From the NCBI GenBank assembly GCA_963721715.1, contig CAVRKI010000004.1, forward strand, positions 1,283,876 to 1,347,875: DNA of 64,000 bases, in the 5' to 3' direction. Each line of letters begins with the position of its first letter. The stretch's first letter is position 1. A program made the translations under genes and the position numbers. Positions 14,847 to 43,894 of this stretch are shown piece by piece. Source of the stretch: an uncultured Acidobacteriota bacterium (GTDB lineage Bacteria; Acidobacteriota; Vicinamibacteria; Vicinamibacterales; UBA2999). Under the pieces are notes generated by a model that made no database searches, was not told where the DNA came from, and saw only the letters and a program-made list of their open reading frames with translations.

Positions 14847-14864
14847 GCGGGCGGGCACGGCCTT

Positions 14865-14969
14865 GGGGCTTGAGTCGTGGGGCTTGGGGCTTGGGGTTCT
14901 TGTCTCGGTTCCTGATCCGAGCACTAATCTCCAGTTCCTAGTTCCTAGTTCCTAGTTCCTGATCCCTGC
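14865..14969. repeat. Composite heptad-phased intergenic repeat: GGGGCTT-type array (14865-14899) plus TTCCTAG/TTCCTGA/TCCCTGC array (14935-14969)
   Basis: Direct reading. A 7-nt phase is kept across all 15 units between the convergent VIT and norR stops. On the minus strand the second array reads GAGCAGG GATCAGG AACTAGG x3. Confidence 0.9.
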
Positions 14970-14973: not shown

Positions 14974-16533
<1,560 letters not shown>

Positions 16534-17333: not shown

Positions 17334-18815
17334 ATGTCGACGATACTTCGCACTCATGCCGTCCCGTATGTGGTGGCGCTCGCGCTGTCGTTCGCCGCGG
17401 ACGCCGCGGCCGGTCAGTCCGTGCCCACCCTGGCTGGCCCGCCTGGATCGCCCGCGGTGGCCCTGCGAGAGGCGGTCGATCGCAACCCCGATCCGGCCAT
17501 CGTCGAGATCGACCTCGAAGCGCGCCTTGCCGAGGTCGAAGTGGAAGCCGGTCTCAAGGTGAAGGCATGGACCTACGATGGCGGCCTGCCGGGTCCGCTG
17601 ATCCGGACCAAGGTGGGCGATCGGCTGATCGTGCACTTCAAGAACCAGCTCGCCGCGCCCACCACCATCCACTGGCACGGCGTCCGGGTGCCGATCGAGA
17701 TGGACGGCGTTCCCGGCATCTCGCAGCCCGAGGTGAAGACCGGCGACGCATTCACCTACGACTTCGTGGTGCGTGATGCCGGGCTGTTCTGGTACCACCC
17801 GCACGTGATGTCCGCGGCGCAGGTCGGCTTCGGGCTCTACGGCGCGCTGCAGGTGGACGACCCGGATGACGGGGTCGGCGTGAAGGACGAGCTGACCCTG
17901 GTACTGAGCGACATCGGCTTCGACAAGTTCGGCTCGCTCGAGCCCGCCGACAGCGGCGGCCCCGCCGGCGAGGTGTTCGGCCGCGAGGGGCAGTACGTGC
18001 TCGTGAACGGCAGGCGCAAGCCGACCATCCGGATGCGCGCCGGCGCGCCGCAGCGATGGCGGATCGTCAATGCCGCCAAGAGCCGATTCTTCCTGCTGGA
18101 CATGGACGGGCAACCGTTCACCACCATCGGCGTCGACGGCGGCCTGCAGGAAGAGCCGGTCACCAGCGGCACGCTGCTCATCACGACCGGCGAGCGCGTG
18201 GACGCGATCATCGCGCCCACCGGCAAACCGGGCAGCACCCTGGTGATCCGCGCGATGCTCTACAACCGCGGCTACGGCAGCGTGCAGTATCGCGATGTCG
18301 AGGAGTTGCTGACGATTCAATTCACCGACGAGCCGCCGCTGCCCGTCAAGAAGACACCCGTCACCGTACGCCGTACCATCGTGCCCGTCAGCTCCACTGG
18401 GGCGACGCGCGTGCCGGTCGTGCTGACCTTGCCGCCTGCCGGCAAGGATGGCAAGTCGGAGTTCCGCGTCAACGGCGTGCCCTACTGGGAGGCGGCGCCG
18501 TTTACCGCGGCGCTCGGCGAGACCCAGATCTGGGAGATCAAGAACGACACCGACTGGGATCACCCCTTCCACCTGCATGGCTACTTCTTCATGGCGCTCG
18601 ACGAGAAGGATCAGCCGCTGCGTCCGCTGGCGTGGAAGGACACGGTGAACATCCCGATGAAGACCACCGCGCGCTTCCTCATCCTGTTCGACGAGCGGCC
18701 GGGTGAGTGGATGTTTCACTGCCACATCCTCGATCACGCCGAGGGCGGGTTGATGGGCACGGTCATGGTGGGGCCAGGCACAGGGGTCGGGCATACGCAC
18801 CACAAGAAGCCATGA
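17334..18815 (+). CDS. Three-domain multicopper oxidase (CueO/CopA-like), Sec signal
   Basis: 493 aa. Cu motifs IHWHGVRVP, WYHPH, HPFHLHG, HCHILDHAEGGLMG. Only 17 nt downstream of ric. Confidence 0.85.
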   Translation: MSTILRTHAVPYVVALALSFAADAAAGQSVPTLAGPPGSPAVALREAVDRNPDPAIVEIDLEARLAEVEVEAGLKVKAWTYDGGLPGPLIRTKVGDRLIVHFKNQLAAPTTIHWHGVRVPIEMDGVPGISQPEVKTGDAFTYDFVVRDAGLFWYHPHVMSAAQVGFGLYGALQVDDPDDGVGVKDELTLVLSDIGFDKFGSLEPADSGGPAGEVFGREGQYVLVNGRRKPTIRMRAGAPQRWRIVNAAKSRFFLLDMDGQPFTTIGVDGGLQEEPVTSGTLLITTGERVDAIIAPTGKPGSTLVIRAMLYNRGYGSVQYRDVEELLTIQFTDEPPLPVKKTPVTVRRTIVPVSSTGATRVPVVLTLPPAGKDGKSEFRVNGVPYWEAAPFTAALGETQIWEIKNDTDWDHPFHLHGYFFMALDEKDQPLRPLAWKDTVNIPMKTTARFLILFDERPGEWMFHCHILDHAEGGLMGTVMVGPGTGVGHTHHKKP

Positions 18816-20320
18816 CCCGCCATTCGTCGTGGGTGGGACTCGGGCTCGCCCGGCTGGCGTGTGCGACGCTGGCGTGGACCATCGGCCTCCCGGCCCACGC
18901 GGCAGTCGCCCAGAGTGCGTCCGGGCAGACACCGCCGGCGCCGTCACCCGCGTGGCAGGCCTCGGTCTCGAACCTCACGCGGGTGGAATCGTGGCGCTAC
19001 TTCGAGCCGCAGCCAGCCGGGGGAGAGCCCGACTACACCTTCCTGGGCAACCGCCTCCGGATGGAACTGCGCGGCCGATGGTCGCGTGCGCAGGTGACAC
19101 TGGCGGCCCAGTACGTCGGCTTCATCAGCCTTCCGGAAAACGCATCCAACCCTGGCCCATTCGGCACCGGCGCCCTCTACTTCGACCAGGGCGGCCGCCA
19201 CCAGAATCAGCAGGAGCTCTACCTGCGGTACGCCCACGTTCGCTTCCCCGACGTGGTGCGAGGCGTCGATCTGCAGGTGGGCCGCATGGCATACACCTCG
19301 GGCGCCGAGGCCCCCAGCGGCGTGCCCAAGATCGAGGCCGTGAAGCGACAGCGCCTCGATGCCAGGCTGGTCGGTGAGTTCGAGTGGTCCATTGTCCAGC
19401 GCGGCTTCGACGGCGTGCGTGTCGACCTGACGCGCCCGGCATGGCGGGCCACCGGCATCGCGTTCATGCCCACCCAGGGCGGGTTCGCGCGCGTGGCCGG
19501 CCCCACCATCACCGACCTCATCGTCGCCGGCGCCACGGTCAGCTCGCGATCGAGTGGCGCCACGCCGCGGCGCACACAAGTGCAGGGCTTCGCGCTCGCC
19601 TACGCCGACCATCGGCCGGTGACGCAGCGCCCCGACAACACCGGGCTCTCCGCGACGGAGGCGGATATCGACCTGACGACGGTGGGCGGCGCCGTCATCG
19701 GCGCGTATCCCGCCGGGCCTGGCGAGGTGGACGTCTTCGGTTGGGCAACCTACCAGGCCGGTGACTGGTACGGCCAGGATCACCGCGCCTTCGCGCTGGC
19801 GGCCGAGACCGGCTATCAGTTCTCGCGCGCCGCCTGGCGTCCCTGGCTGCGGGGCGGCTTCTTTCACGCGTCCGGGGACGGGTCGTCCTCGGACAGCACG
19901 CATGGAACGTTCTTCCCGATCCTCCCCACCGTGCGTCGTTTCTCCCAGACCACGGTCTACAGCACGATGAACCTGAACGACCTGTTCGTCTCCCTCCAGG
20001 CGCGCCCGCGCGCCGCACTGGGCCTGCGCCTCGACGTGCACCAGCTCACGCTGGCTTCGGCCGCCGACCTCTGGTACGCGGGCAGCGGCGCCACGCTCGG
20101 TGCGGGAACCACGTTCGGTTACGCCGGACGCCGGTCGAATGGAAGTACCCGCCTGGGCACCTCAATCGAGACCTCGGCCGACTACGCCATCACGCCGCAA
20201 GTCGCGGTCAACGCCTTCCTCGGCACCATCGGGGGTGGCGGCGTGGTGACCGGCACCTTCCGGGGAGACCGGCTCTGGTTCGGCTACATCGAGACGGCGC
20301 TCAGCTTCGGTAGTCGGTGA
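18812..20320 (+). CDS. Putative outer-membrane beta-barrel protein
   Basis: 502 aa. ATGA overlap with the MCO stop. Signal peptide ending PAHAAVA. Alternating-hydrophobic, Tyr/Gly-rich strands. Family not identified with certainty. Confidence 0.45.
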   Translation: MTRHSSWVGLGLARLACATLAWTIGLPAHAAVAQSASGQTPPAPSPAWQASVSNLTRVESWRYFEPQPAGGEPDYTFLGNRLRMELRGRWSRAQVTLAAQYVGFISLPENASNPGPFGTGALYFDQGGRHQNQQELYLRYAHVRFPDVVRGVDLQVGRMAYTSGAEAPSGVPKIEAVKRQRLDARLVGEFEWSIVQRGFDGVRVDLTRPAWRATGIAFMPTQGGFARVAGPTITDLIVAGATVSSRSSGATPRRTQVQGFALAYADHRPVTQRPDNTGLSATEADIDLTTVGGAVIGAYPAGPGEVDVFGWATYQAGDWYGQDHRAFALAAETGYQFSRAAWRPWLRGGFFHASGDGSSSDSTHGTFFPILPTVRRFSQTTVYSTMNLNDLFVSLQARPRAALGLRLDVHQLTLASAADLWYAGSGATLGAGTTFGYAGRRSNGSTRLGTSIETSADYAITPQVAVNAFLGTIGGGGVVTGTFRGDRLWFGYIETALSFGSR

Positions 20321-20678
20321 CCGCACGAGCCGCTCGCGCGGCGACGACCGCGATGACGAGCCAGAGAACGGTCCGGAGGGTCATCGCGGCGAGGCTGTCG
20401 CTCGCGACATCTGCCCCGGCGAACCGCATCCCCACCAGCGCGACGAGCACGGCGGCGTGTGCGGTAGTCAGCAGGCGTGCCGCCGTCGGCCCCCAGGCTC
20501 GGCGGATCCACACCGCCGCGGCAGCCGCGACACCGGCCAGGCCAGCGATCACGTTGTAGACCACCAGCCACCGGAGCACGACGTAGTCGGGCCTGTCGAT
20601 ACCGGCCAGCACCCGCGTGCCGGCCAGCACGGACAGGAGCCCGAATGCCAGCCCCACCAGCGCCCAGAACTTCGACAC
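20301..20678 (-). CDS. Small integral membrane protein (about 4 TM), unknown function
   Basis: 125 aa, strongly hydrophobic. 12 nt downstream of the cytochrome c gene. Its 3' end overlaps the convergent barrel gene by 20 nt. Confidence 0.5.
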   Translation of the reverse strand: MSKFWALVGLAFGLLSVLAGTRVLAGIDRPDYVVLRWLVVYNVIAGLAGVAAAAAVWIRRAWGPTAARLLTTAHAAVLVALVGMRFAGADVASDSLAAMTLRTVLWLVIAVVAARAARAVTDYRS

Positions 20679-20690
20679 CAGCGTCGTCCC

Positions 20691-21101
20691 CTATTTCTGC
20701 ATCTTCTTCAGGTAGTCGGCGAGGGCCTGGATACGGATCTGCGCCGTGTCGCGATTGAGCGACCGGAAGAGGTCACCCCACATCGGCATGTCGCGCGATC
20801 CGTGCGCGGCCACCTCGTCGAGCCCTTCGATGTACCGCTTGACGCGTACGTCGGGGAAGGCGCCGCCGTTGCGCGCGCTGATCTTCGTGAGGTCGGCGGG
20901 CGCCTTGCCGAGCGCCGCGGCCGCCGGGCCGTTGCCGATACCGGTCGTCCCGTGGCAGGGGGCACAGTAGTTGGCGAACATCCCCGCAGCGTCCGACGCG
21001 GGCGTCTGCTTGATCGGAGCCTGTTCCACCTTGGTCTGGGCCTGGGCTGCCGAGACCGAAATGCCCACAAGGGCGAGAGTAACGAGCGCGTGCGCGAGCA
21101 T
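20691..21101 (-). CDS. Monohaem class-I cytochrome c (paralog 1)
   Basis: 136 aa. Signal peptide, CAPCH motif, DMPMWG Met-ligand region. Roughly three-quarters of residues match the 43302-43715 product by eye. Confidence 0.8.
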   Translation of the reverse strand: MLAHALVTLALVGISVSAAQAQTKVEQAPIKQTPASDAAGMFANYCAPCHGTTGIGNGPAAAALGKAPADLTKISARNGGAFPDVRVKRYIEGLDEVAAHGSRDMPMWGDLFRSLNRDTAQIRIQALADYLKKMQK

Positions 21102-21302
21102 GGCATCCCTCCTTCTGCCTCAAGCGGCAGTGTCGGCACTATGCGCCCCGAGCACCGCGGCCACTATGACCACGGTCATACGTCCGCAGGCCGGAGGCCC
21201 AATTCTTGCGGCCGACGCTCAGGCCGTGGCGCGTCACGCGCTCCGGCTGATTTCCGGACGCGCACGCCCACGCGGACGATGTGGCAGCCGCCGATCGCGA
21301 GC

Positions 21303-21710
21303 TCACCGCGGTGAGCCGGCGGGGGTGACGAGCGGAGCGTTGGTCTGCGGGACGTGACACGCGGTGCAGTTCCAGCGCGCGCCGGCCACTTGCGGACGCG
21401 CGACACCAGGCGCCTCGCGCATGTCGACGAAGTGGCTGGCCGAGGCCGGCGGCGGGCCGGTGGTGGCGCCCGCACGGCCGTGGCACCGGACGCACGCATT
21501 GTTCTTCGCGGTGATTGGTGTCAGTCCCCGAATGGCGTGCGGAATGAGCGGCGGTGCGCCCTCGAACTCGCGCGGCAGCCGCTGACTCTGACCGGGGCGT
21601 TGGTCGCCGTACTCGTAAACCGGTGGGTCGGCCGCCTGGCCACGAACCGCGGCGGGCGCGACCGCGGCCGCCAGCATGAGCACGAATGTTGGAATGCGCC
21701 GCATGATCAT
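21303..21710 (-). CDS. napB: Periplasmic nitrate reductase dihaem subunit NapB
   Basis: 135 aa. Signal peptide, PPLIPH motif, CVRCH and [12 protein letters not shown] overlap with the napA stop. Confidence 0.85.
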
Positions 21711-24482
21711 CCTCCGGCCACAGTGGCTGCGGCGCCCCGGCTCACCTTGACCGCGCATTTCTTGAAGTCGGTCTGCTTCGAAATCGGGCATGTCGCATCG
21801 AGCGTCACCAGGTTGATGAACACGCTCTCGTCGAACCAGGGCACGTAGACCATGCCGCGCGGCATCCCATAGCGGCCCTCCGTTTCCACGCGCAAGCGGA
21901 CCCGGCCGCGTCGCGATTCAATCCACGCCAGGTCGTGCCGCGCCAGGCCGCGCGCTTTCGCATCCTCGGGATGCATGAACAGCTGAGCCGACGGCACGGC
22001 GCGGTGCAGCGCGGGTACGCGCCGGGTCATGGTGCCCGAATGCCAGTGCTCGAGCACGCGGCCGGTGCTGAGCCACAGGTCGTAGGTCCGATCCGGCACC
22101 TCGGGCGGCACCGCATAGGGACGGAAGAAGATCTTGGCCTTGCCCGCCAGCGACACGGGCGCCCCCGGAGCGGGCCCATGCTGGTCGCCGGCCGGCAGGG
22201 TCTTCATCGCCGGCCCGTAGAAGTCGAAGGCGGCACCGGCACGCACGTACGGGTCGTGCTCGCCGTTGAACCGCCAGCGCGTCTCCTTGCCGTTCACCAC
22301 CGGCCACCGCAGCCCGCGCACATCGTCCGCCAGGTAGGCATCGAAGGGCGCGAGGTCGTGCGCGTGTCCGCGGCCGAACGAGGCGTACTCCTCGAACAGC
22401 GCCTTTTCTGGAAACCAGGCCTCGCCGAGATGCGTAACGGTGTCGTTCGCCCCCCCGTTCGCGATGGGATCTGGCCACACCACCTTGCGGTTGGCAGGCG
22501 TCGCGAACAGCACTTCGTAGAGCGTGGTCTCCGGACGGTGGCCGCGCGCTCTGGCCTTGCTCGACCACATCGGGGAGCCGGCCGTCCACGAACCCGGCGC
22601 TTGCCAGGCCCGGCACGCGCTGTTCGCCCCAGACGTCCGCGATGGTGAGGCGCTTCGAGAACTCGAGCATCTGCCACACATCCGAGCGCGCCTCGCCTGG
22701 AGCGGGCACCTGCTGCCGCCACAACTGGGTGCGGCGCTCGCTGTTCCCGTAGCCGCCCCACTTCTCGAAGATCATCGCGGAGGGCAGCACCAGATCGGCC
22801 ACGCGGGTGGAGATGCCTGGATAGACGTCGGACACCACGATGAAGGCGTCGAGCCGACGGGCGGCTTCCATCCAGTGATTGGCGTTGGCCGTGGACTGGA
22901 ACGGGTTGGTCACCTGCACCCACAGCCACTTGATGCGGCCGTCTTCGAGGTCGCGCATCATCTCGGTGATGTGGCTGCCCGGCTTCGGGTTGATGGTCCC
23001 CGCCGGCAGGGCCCAGATCTTCTCGGCCTCGCCGCGGTGCGCGGCGTTGTCCACGGTCAGGTCGGCAGGCAGGCGATGGCAGAACGTGCCGACCTCGCGG
23101 GCCGTGCCGCAGGCCGAGGGCTGACCCGTCAGCGAGAACGCGCTGTTGCCAGGCGAGGCGTACTTGCCCGTCAACAGGTGCGCCATATAGGCCTGCTCGT
23201 TGAGCCACGTGCCCCGCGTGCTCTGGTTGAACCCCATCGTCCAGAACGAGACGACCTTCTTCGCGCGGTCGGCGTAGACATCCGCCAGTTGCTGGAGTTT
23301 CGCCTTGAACTGGTCCAGCGGCTCGTCGGCGCGCCCACGCGCCAGTTCGGCCACGAAATCGAGCGTGTAGGGATCGACGGCCTTCTTGAAGCTGTCGAAG
23401 GTGATCAGCCAGTGGTCGTTCGGCTGTCCGCTCCGGGTCTGCCGGGCCGAGGTCCCCGCTTCGGCGGCGCGGCCCTGCCCGATCGCCTCCTCGCGCGTCA
23501 GGGTGTGCGCGCGCTGTTCGGCCCGCGTGTCCTTCTCCGCGGGATACATGCCGCGGTCGTCGTCTCGGAGGCCGTAGCCGATGTCGGTGTAACCGGCCGC
23601 GAACACACAGTGACGTTCGACGAAGGCGCGGTCCACCGCATCACGGGCGATGATTTCGCGCGCGATGTAGTTCCAGATCGCCAGGTCGGTTTGCGGACGG
23701 AACACGATTTCCAGGTCGGCCATCGCCGAGGTCGGCGTCGTGAAGGTGGTCAGGTGGACGATGCGGTAGTCCGGGCTGGCCAGCTTGCGCGCCGTGACGC
23801 GGGCCCAGAGCATGGGGTGCATCTCGGCCATGTTGGCGCCCCAGCTGACAATCGTGTCGGTGAGCTCGATGTCGTCGTAGCAGCCGGCGGGCTCGTCGAT
23901 GCCGAAGGTCTGCATGAACCCGGCGACGGCGGAGGCCATGCAATGACGCGCGTTCGGCTCGAGATTGTTGCTGCGCCAGCCAGCTTTGACCAGCTTCGCC
24001 GCCGCGTAGCCTTCCTGGATGGTGTACTGCCCCGACCCCATCACGGCGACGCCGGTCGGGCCCAGTTCCTGGTGCACGCGCTTGAACTGCGCCGCCATCT
24101 CGTCGAGTGCGCGTGCCCACGAGACGGGTGCGAACTCACCCTGCTTGTCGAACCTGCCATCCTTCATGCGCAGGAGCGGCTTGGTGAGACGGTCCGGGCC
24201 GTAGAGGATCTGGGCGTTGGCATACCCCTTCACGCATAGCAGGCCGCGATTGACCGGTGAATCGGGGTCGCCCTTGACGGCCACCACGCGGTTGTCGCGC
24301 GAGGCGATCTGGATGCCGCAGCCGGTGCCGCAGAAACGGCAGACGCCTTTGTCCCAACGCCAGCCCTCCTGGGCGTCGCGCGCGAGCGCCGCCAGGCTGG
24401 CCGGCAGCGGCAATCCCGCCGCGGCCGCCGTCACCGCGGCCGCACTGGCGCGAAGAAACGCGCGGCGACTGTGCCCGGTCAT
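21707..24482 (-). pseudogene. napA: Periplasmic nitrate reductase catalytic subunit NapA (paralog 1) with one +1 frameshift
   Basis: Tat leader [22 protein letters not shown] 4Fe-4S motif. NapA-like sequence runs throughout, but the frame changes between ..DVVEQGQSA and [13 protein letters not shown] at ~22543-22549 (extra C in GCGCGG). Confidence 0.85.
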
Positions 24483-24781
24483 GCCGCCGGCTCCGCGCCG
24501 GGCTCGTCCACGTAATGACAGACGAGGTCTACGGCCATCACGCCGGGCAGGCTGGCCAGGGCGGCATACCCCGCTTGCTGGCCGTCGAGCGTCGCCGTTT
24601 CGAGCGTCACAACCAGGCGCGCCCCGGCGTCGTCCCGGACGTGCACGTCCACGCCGGCCTGGTGCGCCAGGCGGCGCTCCACCGCATCGAGGGACCCCGG
24701 CTGCACGGCCACGAGCAGGCCGGACACGTGCATCTCGGCATCGAGGACGGTTCGCATCGGCTCGATTGTGAACTGGGTCAC
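24479..24781 (-). CDS. napD: NapA chaperone NapD
   Basis: 100 aa, GTG start. [14 protein letters not shown] ferredoxin-like pattern of NapD. ATGA overlap with the napA start. Confidence 0.75.
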
Positions 24782-24941
24782 AAGGCGGTCGACATGACAG
24801 CCGTCATACGCCCGCTGGTCGTGGAGTCCCGCAAACGAGGGCGCGCCAATCGGTGCCGGCCTGACGGCGGGCGACGGGCCTTAGGTGCATGAGCGTGGAC
24901 GCTGCGCGGCGACCCTCGCGGCGGCATGGACGGCTTCCAGG

Positions 24942-25481
24942 TCACTCCGGCACGTGACACTGACGGCACCGCACACGCTCCGGGTGCGTGGTCCGAATCT
25001 CCTCGCGCGCGGCCGGGCCGCCGTGGCAGGACAGGCAGTTCTCGCGGAGCTGGAGTGGGTGCGGGATGGTCGGCGGCGCGCCGGGGGTGGCACGGGAGCC
25101 CTTCCATGGTCCCTGCGCCAGGCCTGTGAACGACGACGCCACGAACAATGCACCCGTCTGAACGGGGACGTGGCATTGGCGGCAGCGCTGCATCGATCCG
25201 GCCGCCGCGGCCCCGCCGTGCGGGGAGGCCGGCGCAACGCCCACGCCCGCAATCGCAGCGCCCTCGTCGGTGTGGCAGGTGGTGCACGTGCCGAGCGTGG
25301 CGTCGTGAGGAACAGGAGGAGGCGCGCCGTCGTAGGCGCGAGTGGTGGCGCGCTCGCCCGTGGTGCGCGCCACGGCGGGGCCTGGCGCGGCGCTGCAGCC
25401 AACCCCGATCGACAGGGCCGCGATGGCCAGGGCCATCCGCCAGCGGACTCCGCCTCGTCGTCCTGTCGTCGTCTCGGTCAC
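24942..25481 (-). CDS. Tetrahaem cytochrome c made of two tandem NapB-like modules
   Basis: Four CxxCH motifs (CTTCH, CRQCHVP, CLSCH, CRQCHVP). Each module is preceded by an APPxxPH motif, as in NapB. The start is either GTG 25481 or ATG 25436 (lipobox-like SIGVGC). Confidence 0.7.
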   Translation of the reverse strand: MTETTTGRRGGVRWRMALAIAALSIGVGCSAAPGPAVARTTGERATTRAYDGAPPPVPHDATLGTCTTCHTDEGAAIAGVGVAPASPHGGAAAAGSMQRCRQCHVPVQTGALFVASSFTGLAQGPWKGSRATPGAPPTIPHPLQLRENCLSCHGGPAAREEIRTTHPERVRCRQCHVPE

Positions 25482-25482
25482 G

Positions 25483-27843
25483 TCACACCCGCTCGAGGCG
25501 CACCGCGCACTTCTTGTAGTCGGGCTGCTTGCTGATGTTGTCCATCGCATCGAGCGTGACGAGGTTGATGAGGCGGTCCTCGTCGAAGAACGGGACGAAG
25601 AGCGACCCGCGCGGCGGGCCGCCGCGTCCGCCTACCTCCACTGTCAACTCGACGCTTCCACGTCGGCTGGCCACCTTGACGCGATCGCCCTTCTTGATGC
25701 CCATCGATTCGGCGTCGGCCCGATTCACCTCGACATAGGCCGCTGGCACGGCCTGGTGCAGTTGCTTGATGCGACGCGTCATCGAACCCGAATGCCAGTG
25801 TTCCAGCACGCGCCCGGTGCACAGCCAGAACGGGTAGGCTTCGTCCGGTGCCTCGGCCGGCGGATGGTACGGGCGCAGCCAGAACGCCGCCTTCTCGCCA
25901 TAGCCCACGGCCTTGTAGAAGTGCGCGCCCGTCTTCTTCTTGACGTACGGATCGTAGCCGGCGGTGTAGCGGTAGGGCGTCTCCTTGCCGTTCACCACGG
26001 GCCACAGCATGCCGCGCGTCTGCTTCAGCTGCGCGTAGCTGGCGAGGTCCTTGCCGTGCCCGACGCCGAACTCCCGGTACTCCTCGAACATCGGCTCGTG
26101 CCAGTTGTCGTCGGGCCACGGGAAGAGATGGCCCATGCCCATCCGCTTCGCGACCTGGATGACGGCCCACGCGTCTTCGCGCGCCTCGCCCGGCGGCTCG
26201 ACCATCTTGTTCCACTGCTGCGTGCGGCGCTCGGTGTTGCCGAAGACGCCCTCGCGCTCCACCCACCCCGCCGCCGGCAGGATCAGGTCGGCCATGGCGG
26301 TGGTGGGCGTCGGGTAGATGTCGCTGACGACGACGAAGCGGCCGTCGTTCGGCGTGCGATCGAACCGCGAGCGGTTCGGCAGCGTCACCCACGGGTTCGT
26401 GGTCTGAATCCACAGCGCCTTCAGGTCGCCCCGCTTCAAGGCGCGGAACATGTCCACGGCGTGGTAGCCGGGGACGGCAGGAATGGTGCCGGCTGGCAGC
26501 TTCCAGATGCGTTCGGCTTCCGCCCGGTGCTCGGGGTTGGTCACCACCATGTCGGCGGGCAGCCGGTTGTTCGACGTGCCGACTTCGCGCGCGGTGCCGC
26601 AGGCGCTCGGCTGCCCTGTCAGGCTCAGCGGGTTGGCGCCCGGCCGGCAGATCTTGCCCGTAATCAGGTGCAGGTCGGTGATGAGGTTGTTCATCCACGT
26701 GCCGCGCACGTGCTGGTTGACGCCCATGCACCAGAGGCTCACGGTGCCTCGGGCCATGTCGCCGTAGATGTTGGCCAGCGCGCGAATCTGCTCCACGGGC
26801 ACGCCCGTGACCTCGCTGACGTGGGCAGGCGTGTAGTGCGCGAGGAACGTCCGCAGCTCGTCGAGCGAACTGGGCCTGGGCTGATCCTCGAACGTGTAGC
26901 GCTCGGCCTGGTCGCCGAAGCAGCCGTAGCCGATCTGCTTCACGTCCTCGATGCCGCGCCGGAAGACCACGTTCTCGTCGATGAACGGCGTGTGAATGCG
27001 GCCCTCGGCGACCAGCAGGTGGAGGATGCCGTTGGCGAGCGCCAGGTCGGTGCCCGGCTTGAAGAGCACGAACAGGTCGGCGTAGTCCGAGGTCGGCGTG
27101 CGGCGCGTGGCGATGTCGACGATGCGGGAGCCGGGCTTGACGCGGCGGGTCTCGAGGATGCGGCTGAAGAGCACGGGGTGCATCTCCGCCATGTTGTTGC
27201 CCCACAGCACGAAGTCGTCGCCGACGTCGAGGTCCTGGTAGCAGCCCATCGGCTCGTCGCTCTGGAACTGCGTGATGAACCCGGACACCGCGCTGGCCAT
27301 GCAGAGCCGGGCGTTCGGCTCGAGGTTGTTGCTCTTGAGCCCGCCCTTCACCCACTTCAGCGCCGCGTAGCCGTCGAACACGGTCCACTGTCCCGACCCG
27401 TACATCCCCACCGCGTCAGGGCCGTGCTGGTCCAGGGTCTCCTTGAACTTCGTCGCGATCAGGTCCAGCGCCTCGTCCCACGAGATGCGCGAGAACGATC
27501 CGTCGGCGTTGCGCTTCTGCGGGTAGAGCAGCCGGTCCTCGCCGTAGAGCATCCCCGGCAGGTGATAGCCCTTCACGCACAGCAGGCCCTTGTTGACCGG
27601 GCTGGCCTCGTCACCGCGCACGGCGACGACGCGTCCCTGCTCGACACCGACCATGACGCCGCAGCCGGTGCCGCAGAACCGGCACGGCGCCTTGTCCCAG
27701 GCAATCGAGGCGCGATCGACCGGCGCGCCGCCCGCCGCCAGCCGCGATGCCTCGTCCCGATCCGCGCACGAGTACGCCGCCACCGCCGGCGCCACGGCGG
27801 CGGCCAGCTTGAGGAATGCACGCCGCTTCAACTGCCCCTTCAT
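25483..27843 (-). CDS. napA: Periplasmic nitrate reductase-type molybdoenzyme NapA (paralog 2, intact, shorter)
   Basis: 786 aa from ATG 27843. Tat leader [23 protein letters not shown]. NapA-like throughout, but lacks the long insert seen in paralog 1. Confidence 0.85.
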   Translation of the reverse strand: MKGQLKRRAFLKLAAAVAPAVAAYSCADRDEASRLAAGGAPVDRASIAWDKAPCRFCGTGCGVMVGVEQGRVVAVRGDEASPVNKGLLCVKGYHLPGMLYGEDRLLYPQKRNADGSFSRISWDEALDLIATKFKETLDQHGPDAVGMYGSGQWTVFDGYAALKWVKGGLKSNNLEPNARLCMASAVSGFITQFQSDEPMGCYQDLDVGDDFVLWGNNMAEMHPVLFSRILETRRVKPGSRIVDIATRRTPTSDYADLFVLFKPGTDLALANGILHLLVAEGRIHTPFIDENVVFRRGIEDVKQIGYGCFGDQAERYTFEDQPRPSSLDELRTFLAHYTPAHVSEVTGVPVEQIRALANIYGDMARGTVSLWCMGVNQHVRGTWMNNLITDLHLITGKICRPGANPLSLTGQPSACGTAREVGTSNNRLPADMVVTNPEHRAEAERIWKLPAGTIPAVPGYHAVDMFRALKRGDLKALWIQTTNPWVTLPNRSRFDRTPNDGRFVVVSDIYPTPTTAMADLILPAAGWVEREGVFGNTERRTQQWNKMVEPPGEAREDAWAVIQVAKRMGMGHLFPWPDDNWHEPMFEEYREFGVGHGKDLASYAQLKQTRGMLWPVVNGKETPYRYTAGYDPYVKKKTGAHFYKAVGYGEKAAFWLRPYHPPAEAPDEAYPFWLCTGRVLEHWHSGSMTRRIKQLHQAVPAAYVEVNRADAESMGIKKGDRVKVASRRGSVELTVEVGGRGGPPRGSLFVPFFDEDRLINLVTLDAMDNISKQPDYKKCAVRLERV

Positions 27844-27916
27844 TGCCCGCTCCCGCCTTCCCTGCCGGCGTCCGTCTGCGCCATTCGTGGCCCCGATGTC
27901 CGCGTCATTCACGTCC

Positions 27917-29566
27917 CTATCGTCGCTCGGTCGGGGTCCCGTATCGGCGCGCCATCTCGCGGCTGATCGCGTCGGCTTGCGCCTCGGCGCCCTTCGACAG
28001 CCACTGGTGCTCGGGACGGGCGAGGATCTCGTCGATCACCGCGTCCACGCGCCGCGCGGCATCGGCCCGGCCGGTCTTCGCCGCCGCCGCCGTGATCTCC
28101 CGGGCCTGCGGGATCAGCCCCATGTAGAAGCGCTCGGCCACCTCGAACATCCCGTGCCACTGCGTGTAGTCGGGCGCCATCATCGAGGCGCCCATCCGCG
28201 CCCGCCGCCCCTCGTGATGCCAGAGGTAGTACCACGTCCACTCGATGTGGTCGTCGTACTGGGTCTTGGTGATCAGGCCGTCCGCCGCCAGGGCGTTCAT
28301 GATGGCTTGCCCGGGCTTGGCGAACTTCTCGTTGAAATGGATCACCAGATCGTCGTACTGCCGGTAGAACTGGTTGATGTAATCGGGGGTGTGGCAGTGC
28401 GAGCACACCTGTTTCATGCGATTGCGCTTCGCCTCGGACGTATCGGCGATCGCGGCGCGTCGCTGCTCGGGGTCGGTTTCGGTCACCACCGCATGATTGG
28501 CGTCGGTGTCCATCACCAGGCTCACTGGCGGCCGGTTGGTCCACGAGATGCGCTCGCCCGGGTCGTGGGTGACCTTCATGCCGTTCCGCGTGTTCGCGCT
28601 CATGTGGCACGTCGCGCACGTCGGCGCCGCGGTGTAGTCGCGACCGAGCACCCACGGGCGGGCGTCGAGGTTCATGTCGGCGGTCAGGTCGCGGAACGCG
28701 ACGCCGTGCTTCGACTCCTCGTAGATCTCCTTCTGGGGATGGTCGGGACCGAGGTGGCACTTGCCGCAGTTCTCGGGCTGACGCGCGCGGCGCGCCGAGA
28801 AGTCGTGGCGGCTGTGGCATGCGGCGCACGACCCCAGCGAGCCATCGAGGTTCATGCGGCCGATGCCGGTGTTCGGCCAGCTGGTGCTCGAGAGCAGCGG
28901 CTTGCCGCTCTCGTTCTTGACGATGCGACCGACCGCGTCCAGGTTGGTGGGCTGGCCGTTCTCGTCCGGCTTCAGGTCCCGCATGGTCACCACTCCGCCG
29001 TCGTTGGCCTGGAAGGCCACGAGCGATCCATGACACTGCTGGCAACCCGAATTGGCGGGCGCCATGCCGTTGACCACCTGCACCGCCTTGCCGGGCGTCG
29101 GTGAATGGGGACTGAACGCGACCCGCGAGCCCTCGACGGTTTCCGCCAGGAAGTTGTCGAGCGACGCCAGGATGTTGCCGGCCTTCGAGTGATGGCTGGC
29201 CGCGAACTGGGCCGACTCCGCCGGGTGGCACCGCGCGCAGTCGCGCGGCGTCACGATGGTGGCGATCTGGGCGCCGTAGTGCGTGAACACGTCGGCGTCC
29301 TTCGCCTCGGCCTTGTGGCAGTCCACGCATCCCACGCCCTTCTCGGCGTGGGTGGACCCGGTCCAATGATCGACGATGCCGCGCGACACCTGGGTGTGGC
29401 AGTCCACGCACTGGCGCGACGCCGCCGGTGTGGCGGCGGCCGAGGCCCGCCGGTCGCCGGTCTCGTGCGCCCGCCGCGAGACCTCGAGCCATTGCACGGC
29501 GACCAGCGAGAGCAGGAACAGCAGCCCCAGCCCGCCGATGACCCAGCGCTTCTGATCGAGTGTCAT
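27917..29566 (-). CDS. Membrane-anchored octahaem c-type cytochrome, hydroxylamine-oxidoreductase (HAO) family-like
   Basis: 549 aa from ATG 29566. N-terminal TM helix (WVIGGLGLLFLLSLVAVQWL). Eight CxxCH motifs (CVDCH, CVDCH, CARCH, CQQCH, CAACH, CGKCH, CATCH, CSHCH) and no CxxCK. C-terminal WTWYYLWHHEGRRARMGASMMAPDYTQWHG segment. Confidence 0.7.
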   Translation of the reverse strand: MTLDQKRWVIGGLGLLFLLSLVAVQWLEVSRRAHETGDRRASAAATPAASRQCVDCHTQVSRGIVDHWTGSTHAEKGVGCVDCHKAEAKDADVFTHYGAQIATIVTPRDCARCHPAESAQFAASHHSKAGNILASLDNFLAETVEGSRVAFSPHSPTPGKAVQVVNGMAPANSGCQQCHGSLVAFQANDGGVVTMRDLKPDENGQPTNLDAVGRIVKNESGKPLLSSTSWPNTGIGRMNLDGSLGSCAACHSRHDFSARRARQPENCGKCHLGPDHPQKEIYEESKHGVAFRDLTADMNLDARPWVLGRDYTAAPTCATCHMSANTRNGMKVTHDPGERISWTNRPPVSLVMDTDANHAVVTETDPEQRRAAIADTSEAKRNRMKQVCSHCHTPDYINQFYRQYDDLVIHFNEKFAKPGQAIMNALAADGLITKTQYDDHIEWTWYYLWHHEGRRARMGASMMAPDYTQWHGMFEVAERFYMGLIPQAREITAAAAKTGRADAARRVDAVIDEILARPEHQWLSKGAEAQADAISREMARRYGTPTERR

Positions 29567-29606
29567 GCGTGACCCCCACGTAGATTCACCACTTCGCTCT
29601 CCCCGC

Positions 29607-29649
29607 CTTGAACTCTTGAACGTTGAACGTTGAACCTTGAGCTTCCACC
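29607..29649. repeat. Heptad array CTTGAAC (t) CTTGAAC GTTGAAC GTTGAAC CTTGAGC in the cyt b / octahaem gap
   Basis: Direct reading. On the mRNA strand it reads GUUCAAC/GUUCAAG x4, 40-80 nt upstream of the octahaem start codon. Confidence 0.85.
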
Positions 29650-29660
29650 GGTTCCGCGCG

Positions 29661-30710
29661 TCAGTGCGCGACCAGCGCTTCCCACATCGTGAAGCCCATG
29701 ATCGTGAGCGCCCCGGCGACGCCAATCCAGACGCTGATGTCCGCATACTTGAAGCGGCGCACGAGCCAGTCGTCGATGAAGGGCCAGAAGAAGAAGATGA
29801 ACACGATCAGGCCCTGGGTGAGGACCGCCGTCGTGCCGGAGAACAACTTCAGCCAGCGGAACGCGGTGTAGAAGAACCACTCCGGCTTGATCACATCCGG
29901 CGTCACCAGCGGGTCCGCACGTGGGCCCATGCCCACCGGCAGCAGTGTCGCCAGCGCGCTCAGCAGGATCATCAGCGTGAGGCCGATGATGAGCTCGGTA
30001 TAGAAGTGCTCGGGGAAGAAGTTGAAGTAGCGCGCGGGCTTCTCTTCCTCGCCCTCGAACTTGAGTTCCGTCACCCCGTGCAGGCGCACCAGCCCGATGT
30101 GCATCATCAACACCAGGATGAGCACCACCGGCAGCACCGCGCCGTGCAGGATGAAGAACCGGGACAGCGTCCGGTCGTTGTAGACCTCGCCGCCGAGCAG
30201 CATCTGCTTCATCAGCGGCCCGACGACAGGCACCGAGTCGCTGATGTTGGCTCCGACCGTGGCTCCCCAGTAACTGAGCTGCTCGAACACCAGGCTGTAT
30301 CCGGTGAAGCCGAGCAGCAGGGTGCAGGTCAGCAGCGTCATGCCGATCATCCAGTTCAACTCGCGCGGTCGACGGTACGACCCGGTGAAGAACACCCGGA
30401 TCTGGTGCATCACCACCGCGGCGATCATCAGCGTGGCCCCCCACTTGTGGAGCCCGCGGAGATACCAGCCGAACGACGCATCTTCCGTGATGTAGCGCAC
30501 CGACTCGTAAGCCGTCGCCGGCGAGGGCTGGTAGTAGAACGCGAGGAGCACGCCGGTGACGATCTGCACGACGAACAGGTAGGCGGGCGTGCCGCCGAGC
30601 GCGAACCACCATCGCTTCAGGTGGTAGGGCACCGGCTCGTTGGACATCGCCGCCACGCCCTCGATCGAGACGGGCACGCGTTCGGCGATCCAGTCGCGGC
30701 TGGTGCTCAT
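29661..30710 (-). CDS. Cytochrome b (fused b6 + subunit-IV-like) of a Rieske/cyt b complex
   Basis: 349 aa. Haem-ligand His pairs in helices (LHKWGATLMIAAVVMHQIRVF and FFILHGAVLPVVLILVLMMHIGL). PEWFFY Qo-site motif. ATGA overlap with the Rieske stop. Confidence 0.85.
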   Translation of the reverse strand: MSTSRDWIAERVPVSIEGVAAMSNEPVPYHLKRWWFALGGTPAYLFVVQIVTGVLLAFYYQPSPATAYESVRYITEDASFGWYLRGLHKWGATLMIAAVVMHQIRVFFTGSYRRPRELNWMIGMTLLTCTLLLGFTGYSLVFEQLSYWGATVGANISDSVPVVGPLMKQMLLGGEVYNDRTLSRFFILHGAVLPVVLILVLMMHIGLVRLHGVTELKFEGEEEKPARYFNFFPEHFYTELIIGLTLMILLSALATLLPVGMGPRADPLVTPDVIKPEWFFYTAFRWLKLFSGTTAVLTQGLIVFIFFFWPFIDDWLVRRFKYADISVWIGVAGALTIMGFTMWEALVAH

Positions 30711-31333
30711 GCGGCGCCCTCTCCGTCGCTGCCGGGCGAACGGTGCTTCAGGCACGTCAGGCAGGGATCGTGCCCCGGCCCCTGCGGCGACACCACGTCC
30801 ACGACTCCCGCCTGCGAGGGCACGGACAGCTGCTCGGCGGGCACGTCGATGTAGAGCAACCCCTGCTGCACGTGGAGCGCGTACTGCGGCAGGGACAGCC
30901 CCGCGTCGCCGGGCGGACCGCCGGTCGCCTTGCCGGCCGGGTCGAACGTGCCGTTGTGGCACGGGCAGAAGTAGCGGTTGTTCTGCGGCTCCCACTGGAC
31001 CTGACAGCCGAGGTGCGGACAGGTGCTCGAGAGCGCGATGAAGTCGTCCACGGCGCCGGTCGCCGCCCGCCTCGTGATGTTCACCGTGCGGCCATCCGGC
31101 GTCTGATACAAGAGCGTGCCGCCCACCGCCAGGTCGCTGACACGCGCCACGAACAGCTGGTGCACCGCGCCGATGCGGGCCGGCAGCATGAAGCGCGCGC
31201 TCACCCAGGCGAACAGGCCATAGCCACCGGCGAGCCCGGCCACCATCAGCGCCGTCGACGACAGCCCAAGGGCATCGCGCCGCGAAGGTTCGGCGGCAGG
31301 TTCAACGTCCGGCTTCTGGTGATCGTGGGCCAT
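30707..31333 (-). CDS. Rieske 2Fe-2S subunit
   Basis: 208 aa. Tat/TM leader SRRDALGLSSTALMVAGLAGG. CPHLGC and CPCHNG cluster boxes. 11 nt downstream of cbaA. Confidence 0.85.
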   Translation of the reverse strand: MAHDHQKPDVEPAAEPSRRDALGLSSTALMVAGLAGGYGLFAWVSARFMLPARIGAVHQLFVARVSDLAVGGTLLYQTPDGRTVNITRRAATGAVDDFIALSSTCPHLGCQVQWEPQNNRYFCPCHNGTFDPAGKATGGPPGDAGLSLPQYALHVQQGLLYIDVPAEQLSVPSQAGVVDVVSPQGPGHDPCLTCLKHRSPGSDGEGAA

Positions 31334-31344
31334 CGTGCGACTCG

Positions 31345-32964
31345 TCAGAACGGCGAGAATCCCCGTGAGGGGAACCGCGCCATGGTATGCAGGTGATAGA
31401 GCGGCTGCGCGTAGGCCGCGAGGATCAGCAGGACCGCGACCGCGGTCCAGAGCCCGAACCGGTCCCAGACTGAGGAGCCTGCCACCGGCGCCACCATCGG
31501 CTCCGCGTACTCGATTTCTCCGAGCGCCCCACGCGGCATCACGAACATCGTGCCCAGGAGCACGAAGACGTAGCACATGGCCGAGACGAACAGGATCACG
31601 CCGCCCACGGCCGAGAGGTTGACGAGCGGGATCCACGCCGCGGCGGCCTCGTTGCCGTGGAACTCACCGGTGTAGACGCGCCGGGGCATGCCCATCAGGC
31701 CGGCGATGTGGCTCGGGATGCTGAAGAACTGCATGCCGACGAACCACAGATAGGGCTGCACCATGGCGACCCGCGGCCAGACCAGCGCCCGGCCGGTGAC
31801 GCGGGGCAGCATCCAGTAGCTGAAGCCCATGAAGCTGAGCGCCACGGCCGTGCCCACGGTCAGGTGAAAGTGCCCCTGCACCCAGGCCGTGTTGTGGATC
31901 ATCGCGTTCATCGCGTAGGCGGCGTTGATGGCGCCGCCGAAGCCGCCCAGCGCGAAGGTGATCATCGATAGCGCCACGCTGGCGAAGAACGGGTCGGCCC
32001 ACGGCAGCTTGCCGATCCAGCCGAAGGTCCCCGTGCCGCCACGCGCCCGCCCGGCGAACTCGAGCGAGGCGATCACCGTGAACGCGGTGACGAGGCTCGG
32101 GAACATGATGGCGTAGGTCGTGAACGTGTGGAGCAGCTTCCAGCCGCCGGCAATGCCCGGGTCCGTGAACTGATGATGGAAGCCGACCGGCGTCGAGAAC
32201 AGGATGAACTGGATGAAGACCACGCGCGTGAGCGCGTCGCTGAACAGTTTGCCGCCGGCCACCCGCGGGATGATGGTGTACCAGAGCACGTAGGCCGGCA
32301 CCAGCCAGAAATACGTGAGCGGGTGCCCGAACCACCAGAAGTAGGTGCGCGCCACGATCGGATCGATGCGGTCGACCAGGCCCACCGACCAGGGCAGGAT
32401 GAGCACCACCACCTCGATCGCCAGCCCGATGGTCGCCAGAATCCAGATGATGACCGTCGTCATCATGCCGTGCGCGGGCAGAGGCACGGGCGCGGACCGG
32501 TTGGCACGGCGCCACGCGACGAAGCTGGCGATCATCACGCCGCACCAGATCCACGATCCGACGACCAGCAGCGTGGCGCCGATGTAGAACGCGGGATGGG
32601 CCAGCAGCGGCGGGTAAAAGGTGTAGAGCACGGTGCTCGTGCCCGACAGAATGGCCACCGTCGTGATGACGGTCCCCACCACCGCCACCCAGTAGCCCGC
32701 CCACGCCCAGGCCTGCCCGGCGATGCGGCCGAGCGTGGTCTCGACCACCAGGTAACCGATGGCCATGATGAAGAACGTCGTGAAGACCAGCGCCAGCAGC
32801 ACGCCGTGCGCCGTGACCGACAGGTAATAAAGGCTGGCGGTGCCGAAGGGCAACTCGACGCCGGCCCGCGCCAGCGCCTGCATCACCGCCATCTGCGAGC
32901 CGATGCCGAAGGCGGCGACGGCCACCCAGAAGTGCGACAGGACCAGCCGGAGCGCGGGCGTCAC
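31345..32964 (-). CDS. cbaA: B-family (ba3-type) haem-copper oxidase subunit I
   Basis: 539 aa, GTG start in a GTGA overlap with cbaB. WWFGHPLTYFW (HPxxY His-Tyr), GFHHQF (CuB), QGHFHLTVG. Confidence 0.85.
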   Translation of the reverse strand: MTPALRLVLSHFWVAVAAFGIGSQMAVMQALARAGVELPFGTASLYYLSVTAHGVLLALVFTTFFIMAIGYLVVETTLGRIAGQAWAWAGYWVAVVGTVITTVAILSGTSTVLYTFYPPLLAHPAFYIGATLLVVGSWIWCGVMIASFVAWRRANRSAPVPLPAHGMMTTVIIWILATIGLAIEVVVLILPWSVGLVDRIDPIVARTYFWWFGHPLTYFWLVPAYVLWYTIIPRVAGGKLFSDALTRVVFIQFILFSTPVGFHHQFTDPGIAGGWKLLHTFTTYAIMFPSLVTAFTVIASLEFAGRARGGTGTFGWIGKLPWADPFFASVALSMITFALGGFGGAINAAYAMNAMIHNTAWVQGHFHLTVGTAVALSFMGFSYWMLPRVTGRALVWPRVAMVQPYLWFVGMQFFSIPSHIAGLMGMPRRVYTGEFHGNEAAAAWIPLVNLSAVGGVILFVSAMCYVFVLLGTMFVMPRGALGEIEYAEPMVAPVAGSSVWDRFGLWTAVAVLLILAAYAQPLYHLHTMARFPSRGFSPF

Positions 32965-33437
32965 CGTGCCGCCTCCACGATGATGGTGCCGTACATGTTG
33001 TGGTGCCCGAGCCCGCAGTACTCGTTGCAGACGACGAGGTACTCCCCCGGCTCGGTGAAGGTGGCGGTAGCCTCGCTCACATATCCGGGTGCGACCGTCA
33101 GGTTGACGTTCGTGCCGACGATCTGAAAGCCGTGCAGCACATCGGGGCTGGTGATACGGAAGCGGACGGACCGCCCAGCCGGCAGGCGCACCACGGCAGG
33201 CTTGAACACGTAGAACTCCGCCCGCATCACCACCGTGAGGCTGCCGTCTGGCGCCGTGACCACGCCGGGCGTCGCGAATTCGCCACTCAGGTCCAGCGTT
33301 TCAGGGTTGATGGTCTCCACGTGGCTCGGCGGGTGCGCCGACCCGGACACCGCCGTGATCACGATGGCGCCGAGGAACAGCACCAGCATGCCGGTCGCCG
33401 CCCACATCCAGTAGCGCTCGTAGCGGTCAACGTGCAT
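32961..33437 (-). CDS. cbaB: ba3-type oxidase subunit II (CuA)
   Basis: CuA motif CNEYCGLGHHNM. ITSPDVLHGF. Single N-terminal TM. ATG 33437 is preferred; GTG 33461 is possible. Confidence 0.85.
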   Translation of the reverse strand: MHVDRYERYWMWAATGMLVLFLGAIVITAVSGSAHPPSHVETINPETLDLSGEFATPGVVTAPDGSLTVVMRAEFYVFKPAVVRLPAGRSVRFRITSPDVLHGFQIVGTNVNLTVAPGYVSEATATFTEPGEYLVVCNEYCGLGHHNMYGTIIVEAAR

Positions 33438-33482
33438 GGCGGCCGTTCGCTTCCATGCCACCGGTTGGTCCGCGCGCGGCCA

Positions 33483-33626
33483 TCAATGGGTCCCCCTCGG
33501 CACGAACAGCCCGAAGAACAACAGGAGCCAGCCGAGCACCACCAGCACACCGAACGCCCCGACAATGGCGAGCGTACCGCGCGGTTCGGCGGCAGGAGGC
33601 GCCGTGGGGTCAGGTTGATCAGTCAT
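33483..33626 (-). CDS. cbaD: ba3-type oxidase subunit IIa (single-TM micro-subunit)
   Basis: 47 aa from ATG 33626. PRGTLAIVGAFGVLVVLGWLLLFFGLFVPRG resembles Thermus subunit IIa. Confidence 0.6.
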   Translation of the reverse strand: MTDQPDPTAPPAAEPRGTLAIVGAFGVLVVLGWLLLFFGLFVPRGTH

Positions 33627-33667: not shown

Positions 33668-33694
33668 TTCCGTTGTTCAAGTGAGTCAACGGAA
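33668..33694. promoter_or_regulatory. Perfect 8-bp inverted repeat TTCCGTTG-N11-CAACGGAA upstream of cbaD
   Basis: Direct reading. Lies 42-68 nt upstream of the first gene of the respiratory cluster. The spacer contains TTCAAgtgaGTCAA (weak FNR/DNR-like). Confidence 0.35.
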
Positions 33695-36672: not shown

Positions 36673-38417
<1,745 letters not shown>

Positions 38418-38418
<1 letters not shown>

Positions 38419-40412: not shown

Positions 40413-40416
40413 AGCC

Positions 40417-43715: not shown

Positions 43716-43894
43716 CTGAGCCTCCTTGGAAGCGGGTGAATGAAGCTGACGTTAGTGAATAAAAGCAAAAAGGGTTCCAACCGGAGGGTCGAACATGGGC
43801 CGGGAATACGTGCGATTCTGCAGAATGGTGGGCCCAGCCGCCGGGATCTCGACAGGAACCAGAGGCAGGCTGGCGGAACAGCAGGGGGGAACGA

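Follow-up and report, generated by a model that had tools for sequence, protein, structure and literature searches.

A conserved eight-gene core of ba3 oxidase, Rieske/cytochrome b, octahaem and nitrate reductase genes in an uncultured Acidobacteriota bacterium

We analysed a 64,000-nucleotide stretch of DNA (here, the window) from an uncultured soil-type member of the Vicinamibacterales (Acidobacteriota; GenBank assembly GCA_963721715.1, contig CAVRKI010000004.1, positions 1,283,876 to 1,347,875), in which 13 minus-strand genes between positions 20301 and 33626 code for a ba3-type oxidase, a Rieske/cytochrome b pair, an octahaem cytochrome and two periplasmic nitrate reductase (Nap) systems. 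A first-pass annotation, made from the sequence letters, had suggested that the whole string may be one co-regulated respiratory unit, possibly a supercomplex. The conserved unit is instead an eight-gene core, cbaD-cbaB-cbaA-Rieske-cytochrome b-octahaem-napA-2-tetrahaem, and the 13-gene string is specific to the arrangement in this genome. The cluster comprises three nested modules (a core trio, a nitrate branch and an oxygen branch) and is not a single invention.

Gene families were assigned by Pfam, NCBIfam and PDB searches, and the G+C content is about 69% throughout the window. The core begins with the oxidase genes, the first of which, cbaD (33483-33626), codes for a probable subunit IIa of 47 amino acids with a single transmembrane helix. 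No Pfam model matches it, and a single-sequence PDB search gave only chance matches to transmembrane helices; a profile of seven sequences aligns end to end with Thermus ba3 subunit IIa (1ehk_C/1xme_C) at a borderline E value of 0.066, and the size and position fit. The next gene, cbaB (32961-33437), codes for oxidase subunit II (PF00116 COX2, E=1e-9) with the CuA motif CNEYCGLGHHNM in its translation, which marks a cytochrome c oxidase rather than a quinol oxidase; in relatives cbaB is called as a 158-amino-acid product, and a cbaD upstream of cbaB is kept in 10 loci. Overlapping cbaB is cbaA (31345-32964), coding for a B-family (ba3-type) haem-copper oxidase subunit I with an E value of 1e-125 against the Thermus ba3 subunit I. 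Its segments GHPLTYFW, GFHHQF and GHFHL align with the corresponding Thermus thermophilus residues, and the metal ligands and the HPxxY His-Tyr motif are all present. The likeness to the T. thermophilus ba3 oxidase extends to the order cbaD-cbaB-cbaA, CuA in subunit II and, with cbaD as the probable single-helix subunit IIa, the same three subunits. The Thermus cbaDBA operon stands alone, with soluble cytochrome c552 as the electron donor, whereas here the oxidase genes adjoin a Rieske gene at a distance of 11 nucleotides.

The Rieske 2Fe-2S subunit (30707-31333; PF00355) carries the cluster-binding signature CPHLGC...CPCH and a twin-arginine leader, SRRDAL, and its gene overlaps by ATGA that for a cytochrome b of the fused b6/subunit-IV type (29661-30710; PF00033, PF13631 and PF00032), whose sequence shows the haem-ligand pairs H-x13-H and H-x14-H and, for the Qo site, the motif PEWF. 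After 94 nucleotides comes the octahaem cytochrome of the HAO family (27917-29566), with eight CxxCH motifs and an N-terminal membrane anchor, and after a further 73 nucleotides napA-2 (25483-27843), whose product scores above the cut-offs of two models for the NapA catalytic subunit (967 bits against 904 for NF010055; 944 against 930.6 for TIGR01706) and has a twin-arginine leader (KRRAFLK), an N-terminal 4Fe-4S motif and the molybdenum-ligand Cys context NARLCMASA. The last core gene (24942-25436) codes for a tetrahaem cytochrome with a signal peptide, four CxxCH motifs and two NapB-like repeats; each half has 32-36% identity to NapB and the two halves share 38%, and the whole scores below the PF03892 cut-off.

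Beyond a 160-nucleotide gap lies the second Nap system, led by the napD chaperone gene (24479-24781; PF03927, E=1.8e-18), which overlaps napA-1 (from 24482 down to 21707) by ATGA; napA-1, a frameshifted second NapA gene, in turn overlaps by ATGA the gene for the dihaem subunit NapB (21303-21710; PF03892, E=4e-24; two CxxCH motifs). About 200 nucleotides further on are a monohaem class-I cytochrome c with a signal peptide (20691-21101; PF13442, PF00034) and a 125-amino-acid membrane protein (20301-20678) with four hydrophobic segments by hydropathy and no family assignment; it has no match in Pfam or NCBIfam and no homologue in the related loci. The gene identities and spacings of the first-pass annotation therefore hold for the 13 minus-strand genes, with the frameshifted napA-1 as the exception. 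So does its statement that no opposite-strand gene interrupts the block: the plus-strand open reading frames (ORFs) inside it have a G+C content at third codon positions (GC3) of 0.63-0.76, against 0.81-0.94 in 13 of the 14 called segments, a codon-position pattern that marks them as shadow ORFs. The only called segment outside that range is cbaD, at 0.75 over just 47 codons.

All window proteins were mapped onto 80 species-representative loci and seven contigs. Cytochrome b is encoded directly upstream of the octahaem in all 72 of 72 loci and the Rieske protein directly upstream in 71 of 72; these two genes consistently accompany that of the membrane-anchored octahaem, whose N-terminal transmembrane helix is invariant. 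No dedicated c1- or f-type cytochrome was found in the operon, the window or the annotated relatives, and the octahaem occupies that position. More than 7700 octahaem homologues with 65-91% identity occur in Acidobacteriota, Gemmatimonadota, Planctomycetota, Binatia, Chloroflexota and other groups, and a scan of species genomes gave at least 576 octahaem relatives among the 600 pattern matches listed. Most sources give these proteins no name, and those that do call them "hydroxylamine dehydrogenase" or "multiheme cytochrome." The carriers listed include a metagenome-assembled genome assigned to the named strain Planctomyces sp. SH-PL62, and cultured Vicinamibacteraceae or Gemmatimonas may be carriers too.

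The nitrate branch is attached to this trio in roughly four of every ten lineages, with a napA-2-type gene directly downstream of the octahaem in 29 of 67 loci and the tetrahaem after napA-2 in 27 of 62. The cluster genes include no NapC or NapGH, and a scan of the CxxCH-bearing ORFs of the window found no NapC/NirT-type tetrahaem, although NapG or NapH may be encoded elsewhere in the genome. We propose the duplicated NapB as the electron link to NapA-2, a type of partner described in none of the papers searched. Compared with the canonical NapDABC and NapAB systems, napD, napA-1 and napB match the canonical subunits and NapA-2 exceeds the NapA equivalog cut-offs, but the window holds no napC or napGH for either system, and NapA-2 is paired with a duplicated NapB inside a bc-type operon.

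The oxygen branch is rarer. Genes for ba3 lie upstream of the trio in seven of 65 loci, six of them from Vicinamibacterales-like species (L008-L013) and one from a member of the Thermoanaerobaculia (L085), and downstream of the tetrahaem in two of 56 (L034 and L039). Among the loci compared, ba3 is attached to the module only in Acidobacteriota, in two gene orders, and napA2 and the tetrahaem are present in every one of the nine ba3-linked loci (nominal Fisher p = 2e-4, a value inflated by there being only about three independent linkage events). An apparent tetrahaem-cbaD fusion ORF in L034 was rejected, its upstream part being out of frame, and no fusion protein joining the modules was found. 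A lack of conservation in every relative would have refuted the first-pass linkage, and for the eight core genes this is not what we see: they recur in the same order in the six other Vicinamibacterales-like species, and ba3 with the module, in either order, in three more distant Acidobacteriota.

The additional five genes do not share this conservation, and the proposal of one 13-gene unit fails on them. A second Nap system is adjacent in only two of 80 species (L010 and L013), in both of which a porin gene lies between it and the core, and it is missing from L008, which at 91% octahaem identity is the closest relative; the monohaem cytochrome c is found near Nap-1 only in L010. We conclude that napD, napA-1, napB, the cytochrome c gene and the membrane protein gene are probably a lineage-specific conventional NapAB add-on with its own promoter, giving a separate transcript.

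Several parts of this arrangement have precedents. In Nitrospira moscoviensis growing on nitrite, Rieske/cytochrome b genes are co-expressed with an octahaem termed ONR (PMC6606698, PMC12342949). The ONR-petBC genes of N. moscoviensis and N. japonica resemble the trio in the order Rieske-cytochrome b-octahaem, in having no c1-type cytochrome and in the hypothesis of a quinol-driven periplasmic nitrite reduction; they differ in that reports mention no neighbouring genes for NapA, a tetrahaem or an oxidase, and in a role considered assimilatory. In Caldithrix abyssi, the Rieske/cytochrome b of a napMAGH-Rieske-cytochrome b-epsilon-Hao cluster has been proposed as the donor to Nap and to the octahaem, with a gain of proton-motive force (PMC5317091). 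That cluster, too, brings together Nap, Rieske/cytochrome b and an HAO-type octahaem with no NapC, but its Nap genes precede the trio and include NapGH and NapM, a c3-like tetrahaem; the present cluster lacks NapGH, has ba3 attached and places a NapB-NapB tetrahaem after NapA. The Rieske/cytochrome b-octahaem trio and its linkage to Nap are already described or foreshadowed. The supposition of the first-pass annotation that bc complexes and Nap are normally encoded at separate loci is not supported, given that the trio is near-universal for the octahaem family and given these earlier descriptions (PMC6606698, PMC12342949, PMC5317091).

Two further comparisons concern the octahaem as a subunit and the oxidase as a neighbour. 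The Kuenenia stuttgartiensis R/b-3 complex (kuste4569-4574) includes an HAO-like protein, Kuste4574, proposed to be a nitrite reductase (PMC12485887). Here as there, an HAO-family octahaem would be a subunit of a Rieske/cytochrome b complex; the Kuenenia complex differs in residing in the anammoxosome membrane and in being unlinked to Nap or an oxidase. It is also reported to have additional subunits. Genes for a quinol oxidase and an O2 reductase are adjacent in the actinobacterial qcrCAB-cta bc-aa3 system and in the alternative complex III-aa3 system of Flavobacterium, in both of which the role of soluble cytochrome c falls to a multi-haem c subunit bound to the membrane. Unlike the present cluster, these obligate complex III-IV supercomplexes use A-family oxidases and non-catalytic c subunits, and are not known to include a nitrate reductase or catalytic octahaem. 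None of the papers searched describes ba3, Rieske, HAO and Nap genes in one operon, and the recurrent linkage of ba3 to the operon within Acidobacteriota looks undescribed, making it the new element here.

Taking the gene content and the synteny together, we lean towards a modular respiratory island built on one conserved machine, in which Rieske/cytochrome b would oxidise quinol and the octahaem would pass the electrons on to three acceptors: nitrite directly, nitrate by way of NapA-2 and O2 by way of ba3. Quinol would be oxidised at the Qo site of cytochrome b, and the Rieske centre would hand the high-potential electron on to the haem wire of the octahaem, here standing in for cytochrome c1; we assign the octahaem the part of the c-type subunit of a bc-type complex because the trio includes no c1- or f-type cytochrome and because the membrane anchor of the octahaem is conserved. 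A first exit would be the five-coordinate haem of the octahaem itself, reducing nitrite either to ammonium, the product suggested in Nitrospira and Caldithrix, or to nitric oxide (NO), the product of Kuenenia HAOr. A second would lead through the tetrahaem to NapA-2, which would reduce nitrate to nitrite, a route that we prefer because the cluster has no NapC- or NapGH-like gene. Where ba3 is present, a third would lead to its CuA and on to O2. With a Q-cycle enzyme as the point of entry, periplasmic nitrate and nitrite reduction would become proton-motive.

We also considered a stronger version, in which Rieske/cytochrome b-octahaem is physically coupled to ba3 and to NapA/NapB-NapB in one supercomplex, a three-outlet hub running a Q-cycle and delivering electrons simultaneously to O2, nitrate and nitrite. 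On gene order and protein sequence we judge such a hub unlikely; were it to exist, aerobic and N-oxide respiration would be hard-wired together and Nap and nitrite reduction would be proton-motive.

A competing view of the same gene order, which we regard as possible if rather doubtful, is that these are neighbouring and functionally separate units: Rieske/cytochrome b-octahaem, with or without NapA2, would reduce nitrite and nitrate, and ba3 would be a standard high-affinity oxidase whose donor, a soluble cytochrome c, draws on another complex III. The adjacency would then reflect shared low-oxygen regulation or genomic clustering of respiratory genes, with no electron flow in common and no supercomplex. 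The absence of ba3 from most trio loci, given its counts of seven in 65 upstream and two in 56 downstream, is as expected of independent units, as are the encoding of a separate monohaem cytochrome c within the block and the lack of any fusion protein. Set against these are the tightness of the junction, with a cbaA-Rieske spacer of 8-11 nucleotides in the window and L003 and 56 nucleotides in L001; the renewed appearance of the linkage in L034 and L039, where the genes are arranged differently, and in L085, which belongs to another class; and the presence of the full, NapA2-containing version of the module in every ba3-linked locus.

The modular island must itself be weighed against several points. 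Six of the nine ba3-linked loci belong to close relatives, which reduces the independent linkage events to about three, and ba3 is missing from about 85% of trio loci, which means that the trio does not need it. The spacers of 94, 73, 160 and about 200 nucleotides are long enough to hold internal promoters. The octahaem has a conserved tyrosine, Tyr467, placed with low alignment confidence opposite the cross-link tyrosine of oxidative HAO, which would speak against a simple reductase. Nitrospira ONR and Caldithrix epsilon-Hao look like counterparts by gene order and may belong to the same protein family, and for this organism the case as a whole is one of sequence and synteny.

The catalytic direction of the octahaem can be approached through its relatives of known structure, among which IhOCC is the closest (E=2e-43; 1e-50 with a profile), followed by KsHAOr (3.5e-22) and NeHAO (2e-15). 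Cross-link-free HAO enzymes are reductases, with HAOr making NO from nitrite (PMC8042395). The active-site Asp267-His268 pair of NeHAO, in the segment SGVDH, is kept as D275/H276 within the motif CHLGPDHP (CHMGPDHP in KsHAOr), and the active-site Tyr334 of NeHAO is replaced by an invariant Arg345 (N344-R345-P346 versus N-Y334-P), which would suit an anionic substrate. An invariant Tyr467 (APDYTxW in 14 sequences with 70-86% identity) lies opposite the cross-link tyrosine of NeHAO (Y491 in precursor numbering; GGWTYTEGW) in an hhalign profile-profile alignment with low confidence at that column; IhOCC, which has no cross-link, has Trp at this position. The full hao genes for this comparison were recovered from metagenome contigs. 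An AlphaFold2 model of the octahaem, made from the 14-sequence alignment, was too poor (mean predicted local distance difference test score, pLDDT, of 47.7) and was not used for a fold search. We note that residues 345 and 467 together make a mixed oxidative/reductive signature.

If Tyr467 does form a cross-link, the octahaem could be an oxidative P460 enzyme that oxidises hydroxylamine or a related nitrogen compound and delivers electrons to ba3 and O2 or to NapA-2 and nitrate, as an oxidising or detoxifying chain in a non-nitrifier. The alignment of Tyr467 with the NeHAO tyrosine, at a position where IhOCC has Trp, is what suggests it, and the uncertainty of that alignment column weakens the suggestion. 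The overall similarity to the cross-link-free IhOCC and HAOr is closer than to NeHAO, the replacement of Tyr334 by Arg points the same way, an obligatory quinol-oxidising Rieske/cytochrome b partner would have no obvious role, and there is no amo-like gene in the window; we therefore hold this account to be very improbable. The reductive direction, as in the modular island, is favoured by the genomic context and by the similarity to cross-link-free enzymes.

The neighbourhood of the cluster raises a different alternative. Beyond its downstream end, a minus-strand gene for NorR (14974-16533; 606 bits, cut-off 476) is followed by a divergent plus-strand series coding for YtfE/RIC (16654-17316; 260 bits, cut-off 254), a three-domain multicopper oxidase identified with Pfam (17334-18815) and an alginate-export-type outer-membrane porin (18812-20320; PF13372, E=6.5e-24), the last of which overlaps the end of the multicopper oxidase gene by ATGA and is convergent with the cluster. 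Some 25 nucleotides upstream of the ytfE ATG at 16654 there is a sigma-54-like element, cGGCAt-N5-cTGCT. The YtfE/RIC-multicopper oxidase-porin series with divergent NorR looks like an NO-stress operon, and suggests that the region works under exposure to N-oxides or NO.

The module could accordingly centre on NO, with the octahaem converting nitrite to NO in the manner of Kuenenia HAOr, the B-type oxidase mainly removing that NO or being an NO-tolerant enzyme, and NorR and YtfE handling leakage. Thermus ba3 has an NO-reductase side activity. The pocket motif CHLGPDHP matches CHMGPDHP of KsHAOr, NorR and YtfE adjoin the cluster, and HAOr produces NO from nitrite (PMC8042395). In a Gemmatimonas-type locus, L005, the module is flanked by genes for an Rrf2-family regulator and a hemerythrin-domain protein (6378-6890 and 15219-15791), which hints at NO or redox sensing around it. 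However, cbaA keeps every hallmark of an O2 reductase, including the His-Tyr motif; most trio loci have no adjacent oxidase or NO reductase; the clusters of relatives have no NorR or YtfE nearby; and expression data from Nitrospira indicate ammonium as the product (PMC6606698). We consider an NO-centred module quite unlikely, and retain the modular island, in which NO would be one of two possible products of nitrite reduction.

The spacing of the core in relatives bears on its transcription. In L003 the eight genes are at most 31 nucleotides apart or overlap, and in L001 the gaps are at most 69 nucleotides. The eight-gene O2/nitrate/nitrite module is probably co-transcribed. Searches for regulatory signals favoured neither one transcript nor several: no sigma-70 promoter was found between 19.8 and 35.5 kb, intrinsic terminators occur there at the rate of shuffled controls, and matches to the sigma-54 consensus are fewer than in shuffles, with nothing near cbaD, napD or the cytochrome c gene. 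The 8-bp perfect inverted repeat noted upstream of cbaD does exist (TTCCGTTG-N11-CAACGGAA at 33668-33694, 42-68 nucleotides upstream of the gene) and may be an operator, but it is statistically unremarkable, such repeats occurring at 1.47 per kb in the window with about 0.3 expected in the 213-nucleotide spacer, and none of the six relatives has a counterpart upstream of its cbaD. The spacer between napB and the cytochrome c gene (21102-21302) contains long G+C-rich hairpins and is the only one to fold more stably than its shuffles (z=-2.1); these may serve as a terminator or a processing site, or belong to a repeat element.

Nap is usually regarded as non-electrogenic, since NapC and NapGH bypass complex III. 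If a Q-cycle enzyme supplies Nap instead, the yield of energy credited to nitrate and nitrite reduction in the periplasm would change, and would do so for phyla that are very abundant in soils and sediments (Acidobacteriota, Gemmatimonadota and Planctomycetota). With the octahaem annotated only as "hydroxylamine dehydrogenase" or "multiheme cytochrome," surveys of nitrogen-cycle genes probably miscount this family, and the conserved tyrosine at the P460 position bears on the direction in which it works. The attachment of ba3 adds the hypothesis that O2 and N-oxides are respired together where oxic and anoxic zones meet.

The frameshift in napA-1 separates an N-terminal part of about 640 codons, which scores 944.6 bits against NF010055, from a C-terminal part of about 280 codons in a different frame; comparison with the intact orthologue in L010 places it, as a net gain of one nucleotide, at about 22555-22571. 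It is probably an assembly indel rather than the mark of a true pseudogene, because codon bias is normal in both halves, with GC3 undecayed, because genes at 36.8-41 kb of the window are also split, and because L013, a relative represented by a long-read metagenome-assembled genome, is riddled with frameshifts. In the split region (36851-41002), an AMP-binding profile is matched at positions 19-94 and 156-374 in different ORFs and an E1 dehydrogenase profile likewise at 3-94 and 122-205, and a lipoyl domain is joined in frame to a C-terminal transketolase fragment, all of which suggests assembly indels or a run of pseudogenes.

Short tandem repeats occur in and around these clusters. The cytochrome b-octahaem spacer of the window includes about five copies of a heptamer, GTTCAAS, at 29606-29640 (identified by Tandem Repeats Finder), and the same spacer in L008 (9776-9991) has the 15-mer TCGAAGCACGATGGT repeated 13.7 times; in other relatives this spacer is only 3-36 nucleotides long. 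Similar short repeats are found at 14862-14896 and 14933-14960 of the window and at 14836-14900 of L008.

In 20 of 81 loci (L005, L007, L009, L010, L013, L014 and others) the string includes a gene for an outer-membrane protein of the alginate-export/Porin_4 type, in most cases in the same orientation, either just upstream of the Rieske gene or right after the octahaem or tetrahaem gene, and this in-line porin may be a substrate channel for the module. On the other side of the window's cluster, 213 nucleotides upstream of cbaD and on the same strand, an ORF at 33840-34568 codes for a 242-amino-acid protein with two CxxCH motifs and a weak resemblance to cytochrome c' (E=0.004). Both this dihaem ORF and a hydrolase gene at 34526-35227 were excluded as members of the cluster, having no homologue beside the cluster of any relative. 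Further along, the segment 41847-43751 contains a second multicopper oxidase gene (453 amino acids), followed on the same strand by an ORF for a monohaem cytochrome c (43305-43751).

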